From assembly GCA_000995965.1 (NCBI GenBank), contig LBYD01000002.1, forward strand, positions 270,563-334,562: a stretch of 64,000 nucleotides of DNA. The letters are read 5' to 3'. Positions 3,301 to 62,107 of this stretch are shown one piece after another. The first letter of the stretch is position 1; each line of letters opens with the position of its first letter. A model generated the notes under the pieces. It was given only the letters and a program-made list of their open reading frames with translations. It searched no databases and was not told where the DNA came from. Origin of the DNA: Candidatus Moranbacteria bacterium GW2011_GWC2_40_12 (GTDB taxonomy: Bacteria > Patescibacteriota > Minisyncoccia > Moranbacterales > UBA11712). The translations under genes were made by a program, and so were the position numbers.

Positions 3301-3969
3301 ATGGAACGGGTGAAGTCCCGTTCTTTTGCATTTTTAAATGAAATTAGAATAAAAACAGGCCTCAACAGCGTGAAAAAGGGGACAAATAAAAAGAAAAAAA
3401 TGACAAGCAAAAAAATATTGATAAAAAGGGTATCGACGCCTGAAGATTTTTTCTTTGGCTTTTTGGTGGCGGTTTCATTGGTATTCGTCCTTTTGTGTTT
3501 TCGGAGTGTCGCAGCTATTCCGGTTTCGTTGCCGCAGCTTACGCAGTCAAAGGGACCAAATGAAATGGAAAAAAATATTCGAAAAATGGCCAAAGGATAT
3601 CCGATTGAAGAAATGGCTCCTTTTATTGCCGGGAAAAACAAAAAAGTCGCGGCGTTTCTCGTGGCGATAGCCAAAAAAGAAAGCAACTGGGGAGTCCACT
3701 CTCCGAAAAAACAGGGAAAAAACTGTTTCAATTACTGGGGATATCGGGGTCCGGAAAATCCAACCGCGTCGGGATACAGCTGTTTTTCTTCACCGCGCCA
3801 GGCGGTCAATGTCGTCGGGAAAAGAATCAATAGTCTTGTTTCCCAAAAAGTGGACACTCCGCGCGAAATGGTCATGTGGAAATGCGGAGACGCGTGCACG
3901 CGAAGCGGCGCTCGGGGAGAGGCCAAGTGGGTGCGGGATGTTGGATTTTATTACGATAAAGTGCTATAA
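3301..3969 (+). CDS. Membrane-anchored peptidoglycan hydrolase, glucosaminidase (FlgJ-C-like) domain; start may be internal (MTSKK at 3400)
   Basis: N-terminal TM helix 'FFFGFLVAVSLVFVLLCF'; 'AIAKKESNWGVHS...NYWGYRG' resembles glucosaminidase domain motif (ESGWG...NLFGI). Confidence 0.45.
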   Translation: MERVKSRSFAFLNEIRIKTGLNSVKKGTNKKKKMTSKKILIKRVSTPEDFFFGFLVAVSLVFVLLCFRSVAAIPVSLPQLTQSKGPNEMEKNIRKMAKGYPIEEMAPFIAGKNKKVAAFLVAIAKKESNWGVHSPKKQGKNCFNYWGYRGPENPTASGYSCFSSPRQAVNVVGKRINSLVSQKVDTPREMVMWKCGDACTRSGARGEAKWVRDVGFYYDKVL

Positions 3970-3992
3970 TCATAACGTAAAACTTCCAAAAT

Positions 3993-16701: not shown

Positions 16702-16887
16702 AACGATAGCCTAATAATTAGCTATCTTTATTTTTTCCGCCAAATCTGGCGGACAAAACAGCCTATCATGAGGAAAAAAATCTGTCAACAAAAAAATCCC
16801 GAAACAACAAAAAAGGCTTATAAAAAGCCAAATTAATCTATTTCTAAAGTCAAACCCGGAGGGAAAGACTAAATCTACACATATTTC

Positions 16888-16913
16888 AATTGTATCATAA
16901 TAACACGGCCGTC
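16888..16913. repeat. 26-bp direct repeat copy 1 (caattgtatcataataacacggccgtc)
   Basis: Matches 17497-17524 with 2 mismatches; together they bracket the 16928-17485 gene. Confidence 0.6.
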
Positions 16914-16927
16914 TTATTATGATACAA

Positions 16928-17485: not shown

Positions 17486-17496
17486 GGTCCAATTTC

Positions 17497-17524
17497 CATT
17501 GTATCATAATTATACGGCCGTGGA
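17497..17524. repeat. 26-bp direct repeat copy 2 (ccattgtatcataattatacggccgtgg); contains minus-strand CCGTATAAT -10-like box ~25 nt upstream of ATG 17485
   Basis: See copy 1; a third partial inverted copy AATTATACGGCCGTGG at 61927-61942. Confidence 0.6.
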
Positions 17525-17653
17525 AAGATGATGCGTTGCGGGGTTCTGTAGGGGGAGGATCCTGAATGTGGAGGCTCCTGAAGTTGGACTTTAGGAATGA
17601 TTATCCCGCAGTTTTAAAATCTCTTCAACTGATTGATTATTATTATAACTCAT

Positions 17654-25747: not shown

Positions 25748-25845
25748 AGTTTTGTGAATTAAGAATTATGAATTGTGAATGGGAATGTAGAATATAGGGA
25801 ATAAAGAATAGTATATTCTCAATTCTAAATTCTCAATTCCCAATT

Positions 25846-26421
25846 CTAGGAGGGTGTTTCTTCCAAAATTTCGCTCAATTTCTCATCAAGCTCGGAAAGA
25901 GAGGCCTTGGGTTTGTCCTCATCGATTTTTGTTTCTGCCACCGGCCCGGCTGGTTTTTCAATCTGTTTAGGACTAGTCGGTTTTTCTTTTCCTCCGCCTG
26001 TTCTTGTCTTGGCTTTTTCTTCTTCGAATTTGATTCCTCCCGATATGATTGGCTTTCCGATTTCTTCGGCTCTGACAACAATATGCCGCATAATATTGCC
26101 GTAAAGGCCTAAACGTTTTCCGATCTCGGGAATATTTTGCCTGTTTTCGTCGTCAAGCGAGAAGCGGACAAAACTGAAAAAAGCGTGGGTGTTTCGCTTG
26201 ATGGGATAAGCCAGCTTTCTTTTTCCGATGTCCGAAAAGCCGCCCGAAAGCTTTCCGCCAAGGCTTTCAAGAATTTCAGTGATATCTTTTTTAATGGAGC
26301 CGATTTTGTCCTCGTTCGCGACTTGGGTGAAAAAAAGAAGTTCGTATTCCACTGGATATTTGATAAAAATTAATCCACCAAGAAAGTCCGTTCCGTTGGT
26401 GGAATTTGGCTCTCTATCCAA
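25846..26421 (-). CDS. rpsF: 30S ribosomal protein S6 with long C-terminal charged extension (N-terminus likely shorter than ORF)
   Basis: 'YELLFFTQVANEDKIGSIKKDITEILESLGGKL...GKRKLAYPIKRNTHAFFSFVRF' canonical S6 core. Confidence 0.85.
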   Translation of the reverse strand: MDREPNSTNGTDFLGGLIFIKYPVEYELLFFTQVANEDKIGSIKKDITEILESLGGKLSGGFSDIGKRKLAYPIKRNTHAFFSFVRFSLDDENRQNIPEIGKRLGLYGNIMRHIVVRAEEIGKPIISGGIKFEEEKAKTRTGGGKEKPTSPKQIEKPAGPVAETKIDEDKPKASLSELDEKLSEILEETPS

Positions 26422-26983: not shown

Positions 26984-28033
26984 TCAGATTTTGAATTCGA
27001 TTACATCGCCATCTTTCACTATATAGTCCTTTCCTTCGGTGCGGAGAGTGCCGAGTTCACGGGCCTTGGCCCAGGAACCGGCTTCGAGAAGTTTTTGCCA
27101 ATTGATCACGTCCGCGCGGATGAATTTTTCTTCAAAATCGCTGTGAATGGCTCGGCCTGCCTCAGGAGCAGTCGAGTCATATTTCACGGTCCAGGCGCGG
27201 GTTTCATCCTCACCGGTCGTGAGAAAAGTTATCAGGTTCAAGACTTCGTATGATTTTAAAATAAGTTTGTCGAGATTTGATTTCATTCCAAGTTCCGCGG
27301 ATTCATTAGCTGACATTTGAGAAAGCTCTTCTTCGATTTTGATGTCTACAGCGACACTATTGACCCTAGAGCTGACCCTAGAGCTGAGCTCTAGGGTATT
27401 TTTTTCGTGGATATTTAGGACATAAAATATTGGTTTCCAAGTGAGGAGCTGCATATCTTTTACCAATGCCATATCTTCGGCAGATAATTTCAGGTCTCTC
27501 GCAAGTTTTCCTTCATCAAGAATAATTTTAATTTTCTTCGCTACCCCCAGTGCGGCGATCGCTTCTTTGTTTTGTCCCCGGGCCTCTTTCTCAAGTTTTA
27601 CAATGCGTTTACTAACAGTATCGAGGTCAGCGAGGATCAGTTCTGTATTGATAATCTCAATATCATTTTGCGGATCAATTTTGTCGTGGATATGAGTAAT
27701 ATTTTTATCTTCGAAGACGCGGACGACTTGGACAATCGCGTCTACTTCTCGGATATGCGCCAAAAATTTGTTTCCCAGTCCTTCGCCTTCGGCGGCGCCC
27801 TTGACGAGTCCGGCAATATCGACAAATTCAATAACCGTTGGCACAACTTTGGCCGACTTCGACATCTTCGCCAATTTCTCGAGCCTTTCATCCGGCACTT
27901 TCACAATCCCGACATTCGGCTCAATGGTGCAGAAAGGATAATTGGCGATATCCACCGGATTTTTGGTGAGGGCTTTGAAGAGGGTGGACTTTCCCACGTT
28001 CGGCAACCCCACGATTCCGACTTTTAGTGACAT
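26984..28033 (-). CDS. ychF: Ribosome-binding ATPase YchF (Obg-family), carrying an in-frame palindromic-repeat-encoded segment
   Basis: 'GIVGLPNVGKSTLFKALT', 'NYPFCTIEPN', C-terminal TGS 'EGKDYIVKDGDVIEFKI'. Confidence 0.93.
   Translation of the reverse strand: MSLKVGIVGLPNVGKSTLFKALTKNPVDIANYPFCTIEPNVGIVKVPDERLEKLAKMSKSAKVVPTVIEFVDIAGLVKGAAEGEGLGNKFLAHIREVDAIVQVVRVFEDKNITHIHDKIDPQNDIEIINTELILADLDTVSKRIVKLEKEARGQNKEAIAALGVAKKIKIILDEGKLARDLKLSAEDMALVKDMQLLTWKPIFYVLNIHEKNTLELSSRVSSRVNSVAVDIKIEEELSQMSANESAELGMKSNLDKLILKSYEVLNLITFLTTGEDETRAWTVKYDSTAPEAGRAIHSDFEEKFIRADVINWQKLLEAGSWAKARELGTLRTEGKDYIVKDGDVIEFKI
27362..27397. repeat. Palindromic repeat element, 1.5 copies (gaccctagagct + gaccctagagctgagctctagggt) inside ychF coding sequence
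   Basis: Perfect palindrome ccctagagct-g-agctctaggg; identical core at 38627-38650; translated in ychF as LELSSRVSSRV. Confidence 0.8.
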
Positions 28034-36669: not shown

Positions 36670-36694
36670 TCCTTGGCGGCGGAATTGGCAGACT
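36670..36694 (+). repeat. Partial duplicate of tRNA-Leu 5' end (ccttggcggcggaattggcagac)
   Basis: 23/24 nt identical to the 5' acceptor/D-arm of the tRNA at 36706; lies 12 nt upstream. Confidence 0.7.
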
Positions 36695-36705
36695 AAATTT
36701 TACAA

Positions 36706-36789
36706 GCCTTGGTGGCGGAATTGGCAGACGCACTGGCTTCAGGAGCCAGCGAGAGCAATCTCATGGGAGTTCGACTCTCCCCCAAGGCA
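36706..36789 (+). tRNA. tRNA-Leu (anticodon CAG), long variable arm
   Basis: Acceptor GCCTTGG/CCAAGGC, anticodon stem CTGGC/GCCAG loop TTCAGGA, long extra arm, T-arm GGGAG-TTCGACT-CTCCC. Confidence 0.8.
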
Positions 36790-36829: not shown

Positions 36830-38587
36830 TTGATCACTGTTCCTTGTTCACTGAAAAAAATGATAGCAACAAGAACTCGCCCCGATACGTCAGGTGCCAG
36901 GCGCCGTGCCAACCGAGGGGCTGTCAGAAACAATTTGAGAGTCATCCCGCTGGGAGGGCTTGAAGAAGTCGGCCGAAATATGACTGTCTTTGAGTATGGG
37001 AAAGACATTGTCATCGTCGATATGGGGCTGCAATTTCCGGAAGAGGATATGCCGGGGATTGACTATATAATCCCGAACTCCGATTATCTTCGCGGAAAAG
37101 AAAAAAATATCCGCGGTGTTATCATTACCCATGGCCATTATGACCACATCGGGGCCATTCCGCATCTTATTCCCAAACTTGGAAACCCTCCAGTCTTCGC
37201 GACAGAACTCACCCGCGGGATAATCATGAAACGTCAAGAAGAATATAAAAATCCGATCACAATCAAAACTGTCAAAAAAATAGACCGTTTGAAACTTGGA
37301 ATTTTCGACATCGAATTTTTTCACGTCAACCATACTATTCCAGACGGAGTAGGAGTATCGATAGGGACTCCGGTGGGAACAGTGATAGCGACGGGGGACT
37401 TCAAATTCGACCACAGCCCAATCGGTGACGCGCCGGCCGATATTGCCAAAATAGCCCGCATTGGCTCAGAGGGGGTACTTGCGCTTCTTTCTGATTCGAC
37501 GGACAGTCAAACGCCGGGATATTCTATTTCTGAATCTACGATCAAAAAAAATCTCGACGAAGTTCTCGAACACACCAGCGGAAGAATTATCGTCGCTACA
37601 TTCTCATCGCTCATCAGCCGCATCCAGCAGCTCATCCAGCTTTCAGAAAAATACGGGAGGAAGGTGGCAATCGACGGATATTCCATGAAAACAAATGTGG
37701 AAATCGCGAGGACGCTCGGGTATCTCGAAGTGCGCAAAAATACACTAATTCCGATCAACGAGGTGAATGATCATCCCGACAGTAAAGTGACGATTATTTG
37801 CACCGGCGCCCAGGGTGAAGACAAGGCGGTTCTGATGCGGATCGTAAACAACGAACACCGCTTCGTGAAAATCCACAAAAACGATACAATCGTATTTTCC
37901 TCTTCAGTTGTTCCGGGGAATGAACGGACGGTTCAAGGCCTCAAAGACGGGCTTTACCGTCGGGGCGCGAGAGTAATCCACAATGATATGCTTGATGTAC
38001 ATGCCGGAGGCCATGCCCGCCAGGAAGATCTCAAAATGATGATCAATCTTCTGCGGCCCAAATATTTGATTCCGGTGCACGGCCACTATTATATGAGGCG
38101 CCTGCACGGAGAACTGGCCGAGCAAGTCGGCATGAGCCTTGAGAATGTCTTTATTGGTTCTAATGGCCAGGTGATTGAATTCGATTATCGCGGAAACGGG
38201 AAACTGATGGATGAAAAAGCGCCTTCAAGTTATGTAATGGTAGACGGTCTTGGCGTCGGCGACATCGGCCAGGTTGTTCTTCGCGACCGGCAGGTTCTGG
38301 CAAAAGACGGAATGTTCACGATTGTGACAATCATTGATTCCAAAACCAAGCGGGTCATCGGCGAGCCGCAAGTTACTTCGAGGGGTTTTATATATGTGAA
38401 GGAAAATTTTGATCTCGTGAACGCGACCAAAAAGAAAGTGAAAGACGTGGTCCACAACGCGACTTCAAAAGACGAGAAAGTCAACTGGGCCTATGTCAAA
38501 GACAATATCCGCGACACGGTCGGCCAATTTCTCTATTCGAAAACCCAACGCCGCCCGATGGTCCTGCCAGTGGTGATTGAGGTGTAG
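36830..38587 (+). CDS. rnj: Ribonuclease J (metallo-beta-lactamase/beta-CASP RNase); N-terminal ~25 aa of ORF probably not translated
   Basis: 'LRVIPLGGLEEVGRNMTVFEYG..IVIVDMGLQFP', 'VIITHGHYDHIGAIPHL', beta-CASP and C-terminal domain. Confidence 0.93.
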   Translation: MITVPCSLKKMIATRTRPDTSGARRRANRGAVRNNLRVIPLGGLEEVGRNMTVFEYGKDIVIVDMGLQFPEEDMPGIDYIIPNSDYLRGKEKNIRGVIITHGHYDHIGAIPHLIPKLGNPPVFATELTRGIIMKRQEEYKNPITIKTVKKIDRLKLGIFDIEFFHVNHTIPDGVGVSIGTPVGTVIATGDFKFDHSPIGDAPADIAKIARIGSEGVLALLSDSTDSQTPGYSISESTIKKNLDEVLEHTSGRIIVATFSSLISRIQQLIQLSEKYGRKVAIDGYSMKTNVEIARTLGYLEVRKNTLIPINEVNDHPDSKVTIICTGAQGEDKAVLMRIVNNEHRFVKIHKNDTIVFSSSVVPGNERTVQGLKDGLYRRGARVIHNDMLDVHAGGHARQEDLKMMINLLRPKYLIPVHGHYYMRRLHGELAEQVGMSLENVFIGSNGQVIEFDYRGNGKLMDEKAPSSYVMVDGLGVGDIGQVVLRDRQVLAKDGMFTIVTIIDSKTKRVIGEPQVTSRGFIYVKENFDLVNATKKKVKDVVHNATSKDEKVNWAYVKDNIRDTVGQFLYSKTQRRPMVLPVVIEV

Positions 38588-38917
38588 TGAAAAGTCCGGC
38601 TCTGGGGAATTGCGGCAACTTAACTTTACCCTAGAGCTGAGCTCTAGGGTCAGTGAACCTTTTTTGTCCGTAAAGCGAAGCAAATAAGCGCATTCAGGAA
38701 TTTCAGTAAGATGCTTTCCTCTGAGCACCAGGCGCAGGCGCATTCCTTTGTGCCACAGATCAGGCAGAATGTTGTGAAAAACCATTACCGCTCCGCGTAA
38801 TTCCGTAATCAGGAGAGTGCTGACTTTAGCGGGAAAATTGCTAAGAGTATCCTGTTCCAGATCACTGAGCTGGTAACGAGAAACTTCCCAGTCGTATATA
38901 TCTTCGAAAAAAGCCAT
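38465..38917 (-). CDS. Hypothetical protein; ORF reads through the palindromic element (LTLELSSRVKL) into antisense of rnj 3' end - C-terminal ~75 aa doubtful
   Basis: N-terminal ~90 aa (38651-38917) in clean intergenic space; remainder overlaps repeat and rnj. Confidence 0.35.
   Translation of the reverse strand: MAFFEDIYDWEVSRYQLSDLEQDTLSNFPAKVSTLLITELRGAVMVFHNILPDLWHKGMRLRLVLRGKHLTEIPECAYLLRFTDKKGSLTLELSSRVKLSCRNSPEPDFSLHLNHHWQDHRAALGFRIEKLADRVADIVFDIGPVDFLVF
38627..38650. repeat. Palindromic repeat element (accctagagctgagctctagggt) + T-run, second locus
   Basis: Identical core to 27374-27397; followed by ttttttg so likely acts as terminator after rnj. Confidence 0.8.
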
Positions 38918-39047: not shown

Positions 39048-41840
39048 ATGAACAAATCCCATCTTATCATCAAAGGGGCGCGGGTGAATAATTTGAAAAA
39101 CGTCTCCGTCAAGATTCCCCGTGACAAAATTGTGGTCATCACCGGCCTTTCGGGCTCCGGGAAAAGCTCGCTTGCTTTTGACACGATTTTCGCCGAAGGG
39201 CATCGCCGCTATGTTGAAAACCTTTCCGCCTACGCGCGGCAATTTTTGAACGTTGCAAAAAAGCCGGATGTCGACAAAATCGAGAACCTTTCGCCGGTGA
39301 TCGCCATCAATCAGATAAACGTCAACCGTTCGCCGAGGTCAACTGTTGGAACAATGACCGAGATATACGACTATTTCCGGATTCTTTTCGCTCAAATAGG
39401 GAAACCGCATTGCCCGAAATGCGGCGCAGCGCTCACTCGAAAGACGGCCGCTGAAGTTGCAAAAGAAACGATTGCGCATTCAGGCGGGAGAGAAGCGCAA
39501 ATTGCGGTTCTGGCGCCGATTCAAATCGGGAACGAAAGCGCCAAAGAAAAATTATCCGAAATCAAGCAGTCCGGATACGCGCGCCTTCGGGTAAACAAAA
39601 AAATAATGACGGCTGACCAGCTTCAACTGGCGGGCCATCCCGGGATTGAAAGCTTGGAAGTCGTTGTTGATCGAGTGACGATAAAAAACAACTTTCAGGA
39701 CAAGGAAAGGCTGATTGACTCGATTGAAACTGCCATGAAATTGGGGAAAGGCGAAGTGATAATTGCTTCGACTGAAAAAAACGATTTAGAAAAAAGATAT
39801 AACCGTTATCTTTTTTGCGCGGACTGCCAGATCACAATTCCTGAAATCACCCCCCGCCATTTTTCTTTCAATAACCCCGAAGGAGCCTGCCCCGCTTGCT
39901 CGGGACTCGGAACAAAGCTCGAAGTTGATATAGGCCAAATAATCCCAAACAGGAATCTTTCTCTTCGGGAAGGGGCGGTGAGGCCCTGGAGCGGGCTGGG
40001 TCTTCGCGGCGGAATCCAAAATGGCTATCATAAAGCCCTTGAAGCGCTGTCAAAAAAACACCATTTTTCCATGGATAAGCCAGTCAAGGAATTGAAGAAA
40101 ATTGCTTTTGAAGTTCTTCTTCAGGGTGACCAGGAGCTCGGGTACGAGGGAATTGTTCCCACTCTTGAGCGAAAATTCCGTGAAGCTGGATCCGATTTTG
40201 TCCGGTCGGAAATCGAGAAATACATGATTATCAAAATCTGCCCGGTCTGCCGGGGAAAACGTTTGAAGCCGGAATCACTTTCCGTGAAAATTGGCGGCAA
40301 AACGATTGATGATATCAGCAAAATAAGCCTCGACAAATTCAATGCTGAGATCAAAAAAATGATGGGAAGCGAGCAGCTGACATCCGTTGAAAGAGATTTG
40401 TTCAAGGAAATTTTCAAGGAAACGGAAAAGATCGTGGACCATCTTTCAGAAACCGGACTGGGGTATCTCAACCTATCGCGAAACGCCAACTCGCTTTCCG
40501 GCGGGGAGGCGCAAAGGGTGCGTCTGTCAACCCAAATCGGGTCGGGACTAACCGGAATCCTTTACGTTCTCGATGAACCCTCAATCGGACTTCATGAGAG
40601 GGATACCGAAAAACTGATAAGCGCATTCCGGAAGCTCAAAGAAGAAGGGTCAAGTGTCATAGTGGTCGAACATGACGGAAAAATTATCCGTGCGGCTGAC
40701 TGGGTGGTTGATATGGGACCGGGAGCTGGGGATGCCGGAGGCGAGATAGTTTTCGAGGGAACTTCTCAAAAGCTTTTTCTTTCAAAAACTTCAACGGGAA
40801 AATATCTACGCGGAAAGAAAAAAGTTTTTGATAAGAAAAATTTCAGAAAAGGAAATGGAAAAAAGATTGAAATTATCGGCGCAAGCGAAAATAACCTTCG
40901 GGATATCAATGTTTCTTTTCCTCTCGGCAAATTTGTGGCAATGGCCGGTGTTTCGGGATCAGGAAAAAGCACGCTAGTCGAAGACATTCTGGCGCGGTCA
41001 CTTCGCAAACACTTTTGGAAGACCAAAGATATTCCTGGAGCGCATAAAAAAATAAAAGGGTTTGAAAATATCTCAAAGGTAGTGAGTGTTGACCAGTCGC
41101 CGATTGGCCGCACGCCTCGTTCCAATGCGGCGACCTATACGGGAATTTTTTCTTATATCCGGGATATTTTTGCCGATACCGACGAGGCTAAAAAACGCGG
41201 TTATATTCCTTCACGCTTCAGCTTCAATATGAAAGGCGGGCGCTGCGAGGCCTGCCAAGGCGAAGGACAAAAGAAAATCGAAATGCATCTTCTTCCTGAC
41301 ATTTTTGCTCCGTGTGAAATTTGCGCCGGGTCGCGTTTCAACGCGAAAACGCTGGAAATTGAATACCAGGGAGTGAATGTGGCCGAAGTTCTTGATATGA
41401 GCGTTGATTACGCCCTTCGTTTTTTCCATCGTTTTCCGCTGGTGGCAGAAAAACTGAAAACTCTTTCCGAAGTGGGGCTTGGATATTTGAAGCTTGGTCA
41501 GTCGGCGATGAATCTTTCCGGAGGGGAGGCCCAGAGAATCAAACTTTCAACGGAGCTGGCCCGCCGAACCAATGGAAAAACGTTGTATATTCTCGACGAG
41601 CCGACTATCGGTCTTCACTTCGAGGATGTTTCGCGGCTTCTCAAAATTCTTGATGAACTGGTGGAAAAAGGAAACACAGTTCTGGTAGTTGAACATAATC
41701 CGGACGTTATCCGCGCGGCCGATTGGGTGATTGAGCTGGGTCCGGAAGGGGGCGAGGATGGTGGCCGGGTAGTTTTTGAGGGAACGCCGGACAAACTTGC
41801 AAGAGCGAAAACGTGGACAGCGCGCTATATGAAACTCTAA
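39048..41840 (+). CDS. uvrA: Excinuclease ABC subunit A
   Basis: Two ABC ATPase modules '[19 protein letters not shown]' and '[15 protein letters not shown]', zinc-finger cysteines, 'LSGGEAQR' signatures twice; 930 aa. Confidence 0.97.
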
Positions 41841-41953
41841 ATCCGAAATCCTAAATTCTAAATAAATTCTAATTTTCCAAATTCGAATGATCAAAGTGTT
41901 TTGTATTTTGATATTATTTCGGATTTAGTGCTTAGGATTTAGGATTTGATCTT

Positions 41954-43278: not shown

Positions 43279-43369
43279 AAGTGAGAATTGTGAAGTGAGA
43301 ACACGAATATTGAATAAGTGAATCCAGATTCTTTATTCCCATTCTCAATTCCTAATTCATAATTCCTAA

Positions 43370-45130
<1,761 letters not shown>

Positions 45131-61861: not shown

Positions 61862-62107
61862 TGTATTTAGAATACTTGAAAATGCATTATTATACAATAT
61901 TACAATATTTATTTTCGGAAATAAATACAATTTAGCATTTTCCCACGGCCGTATAATTTTGCTAATTTTGTGCGTTCTCAATAAAAAACAGGCCGGTCCG
62001 CGACGGAAACGTGTCCGTCGGGATCAGCCTGGGTATAATCCCTTCTAACATTTAATGTTAGGATAATATTATATCAATATTTTCGATATTCTTGCATAAG
62101 AAAACCC

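Follow-up and report, generated by a model that had tools for sequence, protein, structure and literature searches.

How does a perfect palindrome come to lie within the coding region of ychF, and what is it? The question is raised by a 64,000-nt stretch of the genome of Candidatus Moranbacteria bacterium GW2011_GWC2_40_12 (contig LBYD01000002.1, positions 270,563 to 334,562; here called the window), in which the same 23-nt palindrome is found within ychF and downstream of rnj. With a probability of roughly 0.78, we interpret it as one copy of a family of short repeats, REP-1, that resembles repetitive extragenic palindromes (REPs) and belongs to a REP/RAYT-type system of Candidatus Moranbacteria (RAYT, REP-associated tyrosine transposase). 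The features concerned are the following.

27375 to 27397 (21-nt core, 27376 to 27396), unstranded: REP-1 copy 1, within ychF; minus-strand reading T-L-E-L-S-S-R-V
26984 to 28033, minus strand: ychF, 349 amino acids (aa), 100% identical to YchF of Candidatus Moranbacteria GW2011_GWC1_45_18
27363 to 27374, and again 27375 to 27386: tandem 12-nt duplication of the left arm and centre, ACCCTAGAGCTG, which adds SSRV to YchF
38628 to 38650, unstranded: REP-1 copy 2, 41 nt 3' of the rnj stop codon
36860 to 38587, plus strand: rnj (RNase J), annotated with 575 aa in public assemblies

The palindrome in the window

The palindrome, ACCCTAGAGCTGAGCTCTAGGGT, consists of two 11-nt arms around one central base (ACCCTAGAGCT-G-AGCTCTAGGGT). 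No further copies were found when the 64 kb were scanned with up to 3 mismatches, and 100 dinucleotide shuffles of the window yielded 0 chance matches. Both copies are exact, as the original prediction had stated with coordinates one base off, and the extra half copy that it had described beside the ychF palindrome is the 12-nt tandem duplication at 27363 to 27374.

Perfect palindromes can arise as chimeric artefacts, and misassembly at ychF had been named as something to be excluded. The ychF palindrome together with its duplication is also present in the independent metagenome contigs L011 and L014, the rnj-side copy is present in L021 and L022, and the identical YchF protein is recorded on 24 contigs across NCBI, JGI, Logan, and ENA. 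Because the same sequence recurs at the same places in independent contigs, the palindrome is genuine sequence and no assembly artefact. Other species, moreover, hold orthologous copies with species-specific substitutions, and the probability that an assembly, amplification, or adapter artefact produced the palindrome is negligible.

REP-1 as a dispersed family with coding copies

The REP-1 core, CCCTAGAGCTNAGCTCTAGGG, is 21 nt long and usually has TA on each side; the element is a near-perfect palindrome of 21 to 25 nt overall with a loop of 1 to 3 nt. Copy counts rest on the 64-kb window, a further 22 kb, and a scan of metagenome contigs. In the JGI metagenome contigs, the core was found in 15 stretches, representing about 10 distinct sites in the clade, and several of these stretches were assigned to the organism of the window, their TLELSSRV-bearing GlmM being named GW2011_GWC1_45_18. 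The 22-kb loci L023 to L026 contain four perfect copies within 7 kb (in leuS, in glmM, and on both flanks of a Y1 transposase gene), so that six sites are proven in the organism, two in the window and four in L023. REP-1 is probably a low-copy family.

About half of the REP-1 sites are inside long open reading frames (ORFs). Besides ychF, the genes concerned are as follows.

leuS (leucyl-tRNA synthetase): ...CKNCS-TLELSSRV-VPIPENDLPV..., the segment across REP-1 being ...CSTLELSSRVVPIPE...
glmM (phosphoglucosamine mutase): ...SYFF-TLELSSRV-KKRLVLDCANGA...
secA, in the linker that joins the scaffold-wing domain to the C-terminal zinc finger: ...ADESS-TLELSSRV-ESRG...
a gene for a DUF2207 membrane protein, just past the N-terminal domain

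The remaining copies are intergenic, 6 to 10 nt past stop codons and between co-directional genes. One of these intergenic copies, after a small membrane protein gene downstream of nrdG, is at an orthologous site in two species (L003, 10132; L005, 4615), with the central base oppositely oriented.

The structure of the core offers a sequence-level reason for the presence of a palindrome in universally conserved genes. Its length is 7 codons, and two of its three phases contain TAG, leaving a single stop-free phase that is the same on both strands and gives (T)LELSSR(V) for any central base. The LELSSR reading is identical on both strands because the core is a palindrome, and because a length of 7 codons is combined with one stop-free phase, about one-third of insertions into coding DNA would keep the frame without introducing a stop. 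For annotation this is a warning: LELSSR segments and hairpin-containing loops in proteins of the Candidate Phyla Radiation (CPR) would represent selfish DNA, not functional motifs.

In leuS and glmM, REP-1 is a clean insertion of 7 residues. In LeuRS, the stretch between the conserved PIP and LPV motifs (CxxCG-xx-PVPEKD) measures 16 residues in about 105 of 120 orthologues, versus 23 in the REP-bearing proteins. At the DNA level, what the filled sites of L009 and L020 have over the empty site of L019 is precisely the 21-nt core. In GlmM, alignment with the Bacillus anthracis enzyme (PDB 3PDK) leaves a 7-residue gap facing "tlelssr." The original prediction of a dispersed REP-like palindrome tolerated as coding sequence is thus borne out by in-frame copies in leuS, glmM, secA, and the DUF2207 gene, as well as by copies flanking a RAYT-like transposase gene (see below). 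The CxxC loop of LeuRS that hosts REP-1 appears to be an insertion-tolerant hot spot, since unrelated lysine-rich insertions of 20 to 35 aa occupy the same loop in other Moranbacteria (P0275, P0295, P0296, P0305, P0321, and P0322).

Two further matches to the core were taken as chance: one unrelated Paenibacillus hairpin in a scan of genome contigs, and one unrelated hairpin after a tRNA in a phage of 57% GC in a scan of viral contigs.

A Y1/HUH transposase flanked by REP-1

A 219-aa Y1/HUH ORF, here named RAYT-1, was found between glmS and an Nramp gene with REP-1 copies 40 nt upstream and 6 nt downstream (L015, L010, and L023); REP-1 flanks the gene in L012 and L020 as well. The protein matches the IS200-like Pfam family Y1_Tnp (PF01797) with 28 to 31 bits (cut-off, 23), and its sole NCBIfam match is REP_Tyr_transpos, the REP-associated tyrosine transposase (NF047646), with 27.9 bits against an equivalog cut-off of 80. 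Among its more than 2,000 homologues, those with a named organism are from Moranbacteria, Parcubacteria, or Patescibacteria, and some carry the JGI label "REP element-mobilizing transposase RayT." The HxH motif (H89-Y-H91), Y149, and N153 (Tyr+4) are invariant in 25 to 32 homologues. For an AlphaFold2 (AF2) model of the protein (predicted local distance difference test [pLDDT], 81), the top Foldseek match is E. coli TnpA-REP bound to a REP hairpin (4ER8_A; E value, 1.9e-5; probability, 1.00). The TnpA proteins of IS608 and ISDra2 come next, with E values of about 0.02.

The glmS-RAYT order and the flanking REPs are kept in three species (L015/L023, L012, and L020) at 79 to 85% protein identity. 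Since the glmS-adjacent position is kept in three species, RAYT-1 appears from gene order to be a vertically inherited RAYT rather than a hopping insertion sequence (IS). A 182-aa annotation had raised the possibility that RAYT-1 is truncated in the organism of the window; this was rejected, the annotation being an alternative start call on DNA identical to that of the 219-aa version. In the allele of GW2011_GWF1_44_4 (L009, 332 to 928), an in-frame 21-aa deletion leaves 198 aa and removes conserved N-terminal residues, and RAYT-1 may be decaying in some strains.

Two paralogues accompany RAYT-1. The three transposases are 42 to 52% identical to one another, and each is flanked by a different 21-nt palindrome. 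The window itself contains no RAYT homologue, no REP-2, and no REP-3.

RAYT-3, L023, 553 to 1227, same genome: 224 aa, 52% identical; flanked by REP-3, GACGAGAG-N5-CTCTCGTC
REP-3 copies in L023: 519 to 539, 758 to 778, and 1216 to 1236
RAYT-2, L006, downstream of secA: 213 aa, 49% identical; flanked by REP-2, GTAGAGGTTWAACCTCTAC
REP-2 copies in L006: 5207 to 5225, 5677 to 5695, and 5886 to 5904

All three hairpin types are 21 nt long including the closing pair, a multiple of three (3n). In both paralogues, a third cognate hairpin is in frame within the gene itself (PVEVKPLR and RRELSSRQ), with no net change in length; the loop that holds it, which precedes the HUH strand, is the same in both. 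A full hairpin with an extra arm copy (e.g., AGCTCTAGGG and AGCTCTCGTC) was observed at L015 3801 to 3850, L020 14062 to 14095, L023 1216 to 1250, and window 27363 to 27397; the occurrence of such arm copies both beside RAYT genes and in ychF suggests a common by-product of slippage or processing.

An autonomous element would account for some of these observations. In the IS200/IS605 family (IS608 and ISDra2), subterminal hairpins are recognised on single-stranded DNA and insertion occurs without target duplication. The palindromes could accordingly be the ends and solo remnants of such an IS, in which the Y1 gene and its hairpins move as a unit: the hairpins bracket a Y1_Tnp gene, the enzyme shares the Y1/HUH type with HxH and catalytic Tyr, the predicted fold also matches the TnpA proteins of IS608 and ISDra2, and hairpin recognition would be a shared property. 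Such ISs are, however, identical multicopy units of gene plus ends, often with tnpB, whereas here the genes are diverged and syntenic and only the hairpins are dispersed. The three Y1 genes have different hairpins and are not identical copies, RAYT-1 is glmS adjacent in three species, no tnpB was called in the 22-kb neighbourhoods, solo hairpins outnumber genes, and TnpA-REP is the best fold match, with an E value about 1,000-fold better than those of the IS transposases. We therefore regard a mobile IS as quite unlikely and favour a RAYT with a cognate REP.

The ychF copy

In YchF, the REP falls in the hypervariable loop that follows the G4-like YVLN motif. The protein reads ...YVLNIHEKN-TLELSSRV-SSRV-NSVAVDIKIEEE... 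(the last segment beginning NSVAVD), and the segment across the REP is ...NTLELSSRVSSRVN.... The original prediction had described an in-frame insertion at this point. The palindrome is indeed in frame and translated, but it adds no net length. The loop spans 18 to 25 aa in Moranbacteria; it is 18 aa in REP-bearing proteins and 22 aa in the window, where the duplication is present, and loops of orthologues that lack the REP are equal in length or longer, which is part of what the prediction itself had named as speaking against an insertion. In alignment with Haemophilus influenzae YchF (1JAL), the REP peptide faces native residues, the loop being shorter by 5 aa. The REP-free orthologue L029 has 13 codons compared with 10 in the REP-bearing L017, and no palindrome remnant was found in the L029 DNA. 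The ychF REP thus occupies a native loop without net gain, which implies either an insertion accompanied by loss of native codons or a replacement.

The copy also appears, from sequence comparison, to be old and not specific to this genome, because relatives carry the same or a decayed element at the same codons. L017, whose YchF is 85% identical, has ACCCTAGAGCTCGGCTCTAGGGT without the 12-nt duplication, and a decayed form, AACCGGGAGCTCGGCTCTTGGGT, is present in L018. Loops of the type EKN(T/N)xE(L/P)(S/G)S(R/W)x occur in another eight orthologues, the least similar at 72% identity. A neighbor-joining tree built from 99 YchF proteins after masking of the loop had a star-like topology, which does not tell whether the REP-bearing loops are a single clade. 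The common non-REP loop TSEKETSDFASLREKYP was considered as a decayed REP and rejected, its similarity in L029 DNA being only at chance level. An AF2 model of YchF places residues 214 to 221 in a helix, but the model is poor (pLDDT, 59) and the placement is unreliable. In the ychF fragment of L011, 30 nt encoding the conserved LLTWKPIFYV are missing just upstream of the REP, either as a population variant or through an assembly error.

The rnj copy marks a deletion junction

The second copy in the window is associated with the following features.

38465 to 38917, minus strand: ORF of 150 aa that reads through REP-1 copy 2 (...KKGSLTLELSSRVKLS..., GSLTLELSSRVKL)
38654 to 38917, minus strand: gene remnant, residues 1 to 88 of a conserved protein of about 277 aa, 84% identical to P0394
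38610 to 38655, unstranded: 46-nt segment with REP-1 copy 2, which replaces 853 nt of L027 (blastn)

An exhaustive HMMER search with the 150-aa ORF revealed that residues 1 to 88 match the N termini of proteins of 250 to 293 aa, the best being P0394 (277 aa). Homology ends exactly at the palindrome and is followed by 62 residues of read-through. The protein of about 277 aa belongs to a family with a HEFAH motif, and in the syntenic relative L027 the full-length gene is located between uvrA and rnj, convergent with rnj. Because 46 nt stand where L027 has 853 nt, REP-1 copy 2 marks the junction of an 853-nt deletion that truncates the 277-aa gene. From this junction we infer a REP-associated deletion, which would link a REP to the truncation of a gene. 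The antisense ORF that had been noted at this site is thus neither an independent gene nor a pure artefact: the ORF is a truncated gene that continues via the open phase of the REP into rnj antisense sequence, to 38465. Between the convergent rnj and 277-aa genes of L027, the reverse strand (3952 to 3972) contains a hairpin, aaaaCCCGGGAGCGAGGCTCTCGGGtttt, that agrees with the core of REP-1 in 16 of 21 positions, one pair being compensatory, and could be either a diverged REP or an ordinary bidirectional terminator.

The role of rnj terminator that had been proposed for this copy is weakly supported. Whereas an intrinsic terminator has a U-tract 0 to 2 nt after a G+C-rich stem, the T-run here begins 10 nt past the stem and consists of the DKKG codons (...TDKKG) of the gene remnant on the opposite strand, and a terminator scan made no call. 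More generally, the hairpin could be a host element (a terminator, mRNA-stability hairpin, or operator) that is kept by selection or recombination, with the Y1 gene an incidental neighbour. The intergenic copies are in a typical location for 3' hairpins, the hairpin has a stability of about -20 kcal/mol in its sequence context, and the nucleotide sequence of the core is more conserved than its flanks. Roughly half of the copies, however, lie within the coding sequence of essential genes that are unrelated to one another, and a terminator there would do harm; the rnj copy has no adjacent U-tract; an Rfam search of both window sites matched no family; and an incidental neighbour leaves the pairing of three hairpins, each with its own Y1 paralogue, unexplained. 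A host element is therefore an unlikely explanation compared with a REP/RAYT-type system.

Species-specific variants of the hairpin

Genes of the organism of the window and of the sister species represented by L017 and L020 are 71 to 79% identical in DNA, with a third-position identity of 0.53 to 0.57. At three coding sites shared by these two species, 59 of 63 core positions are identical (binomial P, ~1e-4). The copies seen in the sister species, at leuS, glmM, ychF, and either flank of the RAYT gene, all have the form CCCTAGAGC-CGA-GCTCTAGGG or its complement (loop CGA/TCG), all those seen in the organism of the window have the perfect form with loop TGA/TCA, and in glmM the orientation of the loop is flipped between the two species. 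The presence of genome-specific variants at orthologous sites hints at concerted evolution or at parallel "perfecting" of the hairpin, and the system offers a natural test bed for concerted evolution of REP copies.

These variants also bear on a reading in which TLELSSRV is selected as a short linear peptide motif and the DNA palindrome is a by-product. The same octapeptide does occur in five proteins, but LELSSR is simply the sole stop-free reading of the palindrome. Identical DNA is found in noncoding positions and at the deletion junction, synonymous positions are conserved, in a sister species the peptide is altered to LEPSSR or LELGSR even though a single DNA variant prevails throughout that species, and in no relative was the peptide seen encoded by nonpalindromic synonymous codons. 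Selection on the peptide is thus highly improbable, and a DNA-level repeat remains the preferred reading.

Tentatively, and as something that we consider possible rather than probable, fixed REPs could be continuously rewritten to the current master hairpin of the genome, either by the cognate RAYT (hairpin exchange) or by gene conversion between REPs. Rewriting would be compatible with the species-wide variants, the flipped loop in glmM, the hairpins inside RAYT genes that leave their length unchanged, and the codon replacement in ychF. If it does occur, the 21-nt (3n) length of all three hairpins would be an adaptation to gene-dense CPR genomes.

Proposed mechanism and points against it

In the mechanism that we propose, the 219-aa HUH/Y1 transposase, encoded elsewhere in the genome, would recognise the REP-1 hairpin on single-stranded DNA and, by analogy with TnpA-REP and IS200/IS605 TnpA, would cut and rejoin DNA beside it, thereby dispersing and perhaps rewriting the hairpin. 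Both the movement of REP-1 by the transposase and the way in which it would act are our inference. In-frame copies landing in loops or linkers of essential proteins (YchF, LeuRS, GlmM, SecA, and the DUF2207 protein) could persist because the core neither shifts the frame nor stops translation. In ychF, an old fixed copy would now fill the native loop, with SSRV added afterwards when slippage duplicated 12 nt.

Several observations weigh against this interpretation. Fixation in the population was seen at every site examined, and species whose proteins are 15 to 30% diverged have several of the sites in common, so there is no sign of recent transposition. The copy number observed is low, with six sites proven in the organism and about 10 in the clade, while classical REPs typically exceed 100. 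REP-1 is without the canonical 5' GTAG tag: its stem instead contains CTAG, its foot reads GGGTA[A/G], and GTAG is present in only some copies (sites F and A), whereas REP-2 starts with GTAG. The absence of any length gain in ychF, RAYT-2, and RAYT-3 is not explained by simple insertion. Because the REP-1 copies flanking RAYT-1 share the same central base, the inverted arrangement of a classical REPtron is not clearly present. Finally, the score of RAYT-1 is far under the equivalog cut-off for RAYTs, and PDB sequence searches with the 219-aa protein, both as a single sequence and as a profile, returned nothing.

Relation to known palindromic elements

To our knowledge, work on REP/RAYT systems has been confined almost entirely to Proteobacteria, and the function of RAYTs is still debated. 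The present system resembles the REPtrons and REPINs of Escherichia, Pseudomonas, and Stenotrophomonas in its short palindromic repeats (within the 20- to 40-bp range of REPs) dispersed in the genome, in a Y1/HUH gene that is apparently present in one copy per repeat type and is bracketed by the cognate repeat, in the coexistence of several transposase-repeat pairs with their own hairpins, in the vertically inherited gene at a conserved locus, in intergenic copies just 3' of ORFs, and in a predicted transposase structure that best matches TnpA-REP. It differs in that its transposase, of 219 aa and with a long C-terminal helix, represents a distant Patescibacteria-wide subfamily and scores far under the NF047646 cut-off, and in that REP-1 is a near-perfect 21-nt palindrome of low observed copy number, about half intragenic, with no conserved GTAG or CGTC end tetranucleotide, all hairpin types being 3n.

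In-frame intragenic REPs are already known from Opitutus terrae and Thioalkalivibrio, alongside RPE-4 and RPE-6 of Rickettsia conorii; these REPs are GTAG or CGTC tagged, often form dimers that encode 20 to 30 aa, and are found preferentially in genes for DNA repair (Di Nocera et al. 2013, PMC3733652). Like them, REP-1 is in frame in genes of known function, in presumed loops or linkers, and is assumed to be neutral; unlike them, it occurs as single 7-codon units in translation, secretion, cell-wall, and transposase genes.

The larger Rickettsia palindromic elements (RPEs) are likewise established. RPE-1, reportedly described by Ogata et al. in 2000, is said to be 100 to 150 bp long and to encode 30 to 50 aa, and we know of no transposase associated with it. 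RPEs and REP-1 are both palindromic selfish DNA that sits in frame in essential genes of a bacterium with a small genome, and for both the orthologous sites are retained in different species; in-frame presence that is absent from orthologues was found for REP-1 in leuS (about 105 orthologues and L019) and in glmM. REP-1, however, has a core of 21 nt in an element of 21 to 25 nt, far from the 100 to 150 bp of an RPE, and has a cognate Y1 gene.

The palindromic amphipathic repeat coding elements (PARCELs) of Mollicutes are, like REP-1, palindromic DNA readable as protein in either orientation, but they are tandem coding modules of about 100 bp or more in surface proteins and have no association with a Y1 transposase (PMC2996958). 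The comparison with miniature inverted-repeat transposable elements in the original prediction does not hold, as these are 50 to 500 bp long with terminal inverted repeats and a target duplication. The TA on both sides of most REP-1 copies could be either a TA duplication or part of the palindrome; the gain in leuS is exactly 21 nt.

We found no paper linking RAYTs with the CPR or Patescibacteria. Distinct to the present system are a RAYT subfamily specific to Patescibacteria, hairpins that are perfect and 7 codons long, a large share of intragenic copies, some of them inside transposase genes, and one copy at a gene-truncating deletion junction. With three transposase-hairpin pairs, it provides a compact and tractable example of a REP/RAYT system in an ultrasmall CPR genome.

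Other repeats in the window

Upstream of rnj, the first 23 nt of a tRNA gene (36706 to 36789) are duplicated at 36671 to 36693 with 22 of 23 positions identical; the duplicated start sits 36 nt upstream of the tRNA and may be an integration or duplication scar. A motif with internal dyad symmetry, TTGTATCATAAT...ACGGCCGT...ATTATGAT, occurs three times in the window (16883 to 16923, 17492 to 17532, and 61923 to 61963). Degenerate AATTC-rich repeats (e.g., ATTCTCAATTCTAAATTCTCAATTC) are found in the intergenic spacers at 25750 to 25846, 41834 to 41865, and 43331 to 43378, and an AATTC-rich tract is also present between glmM and glmS in L016.

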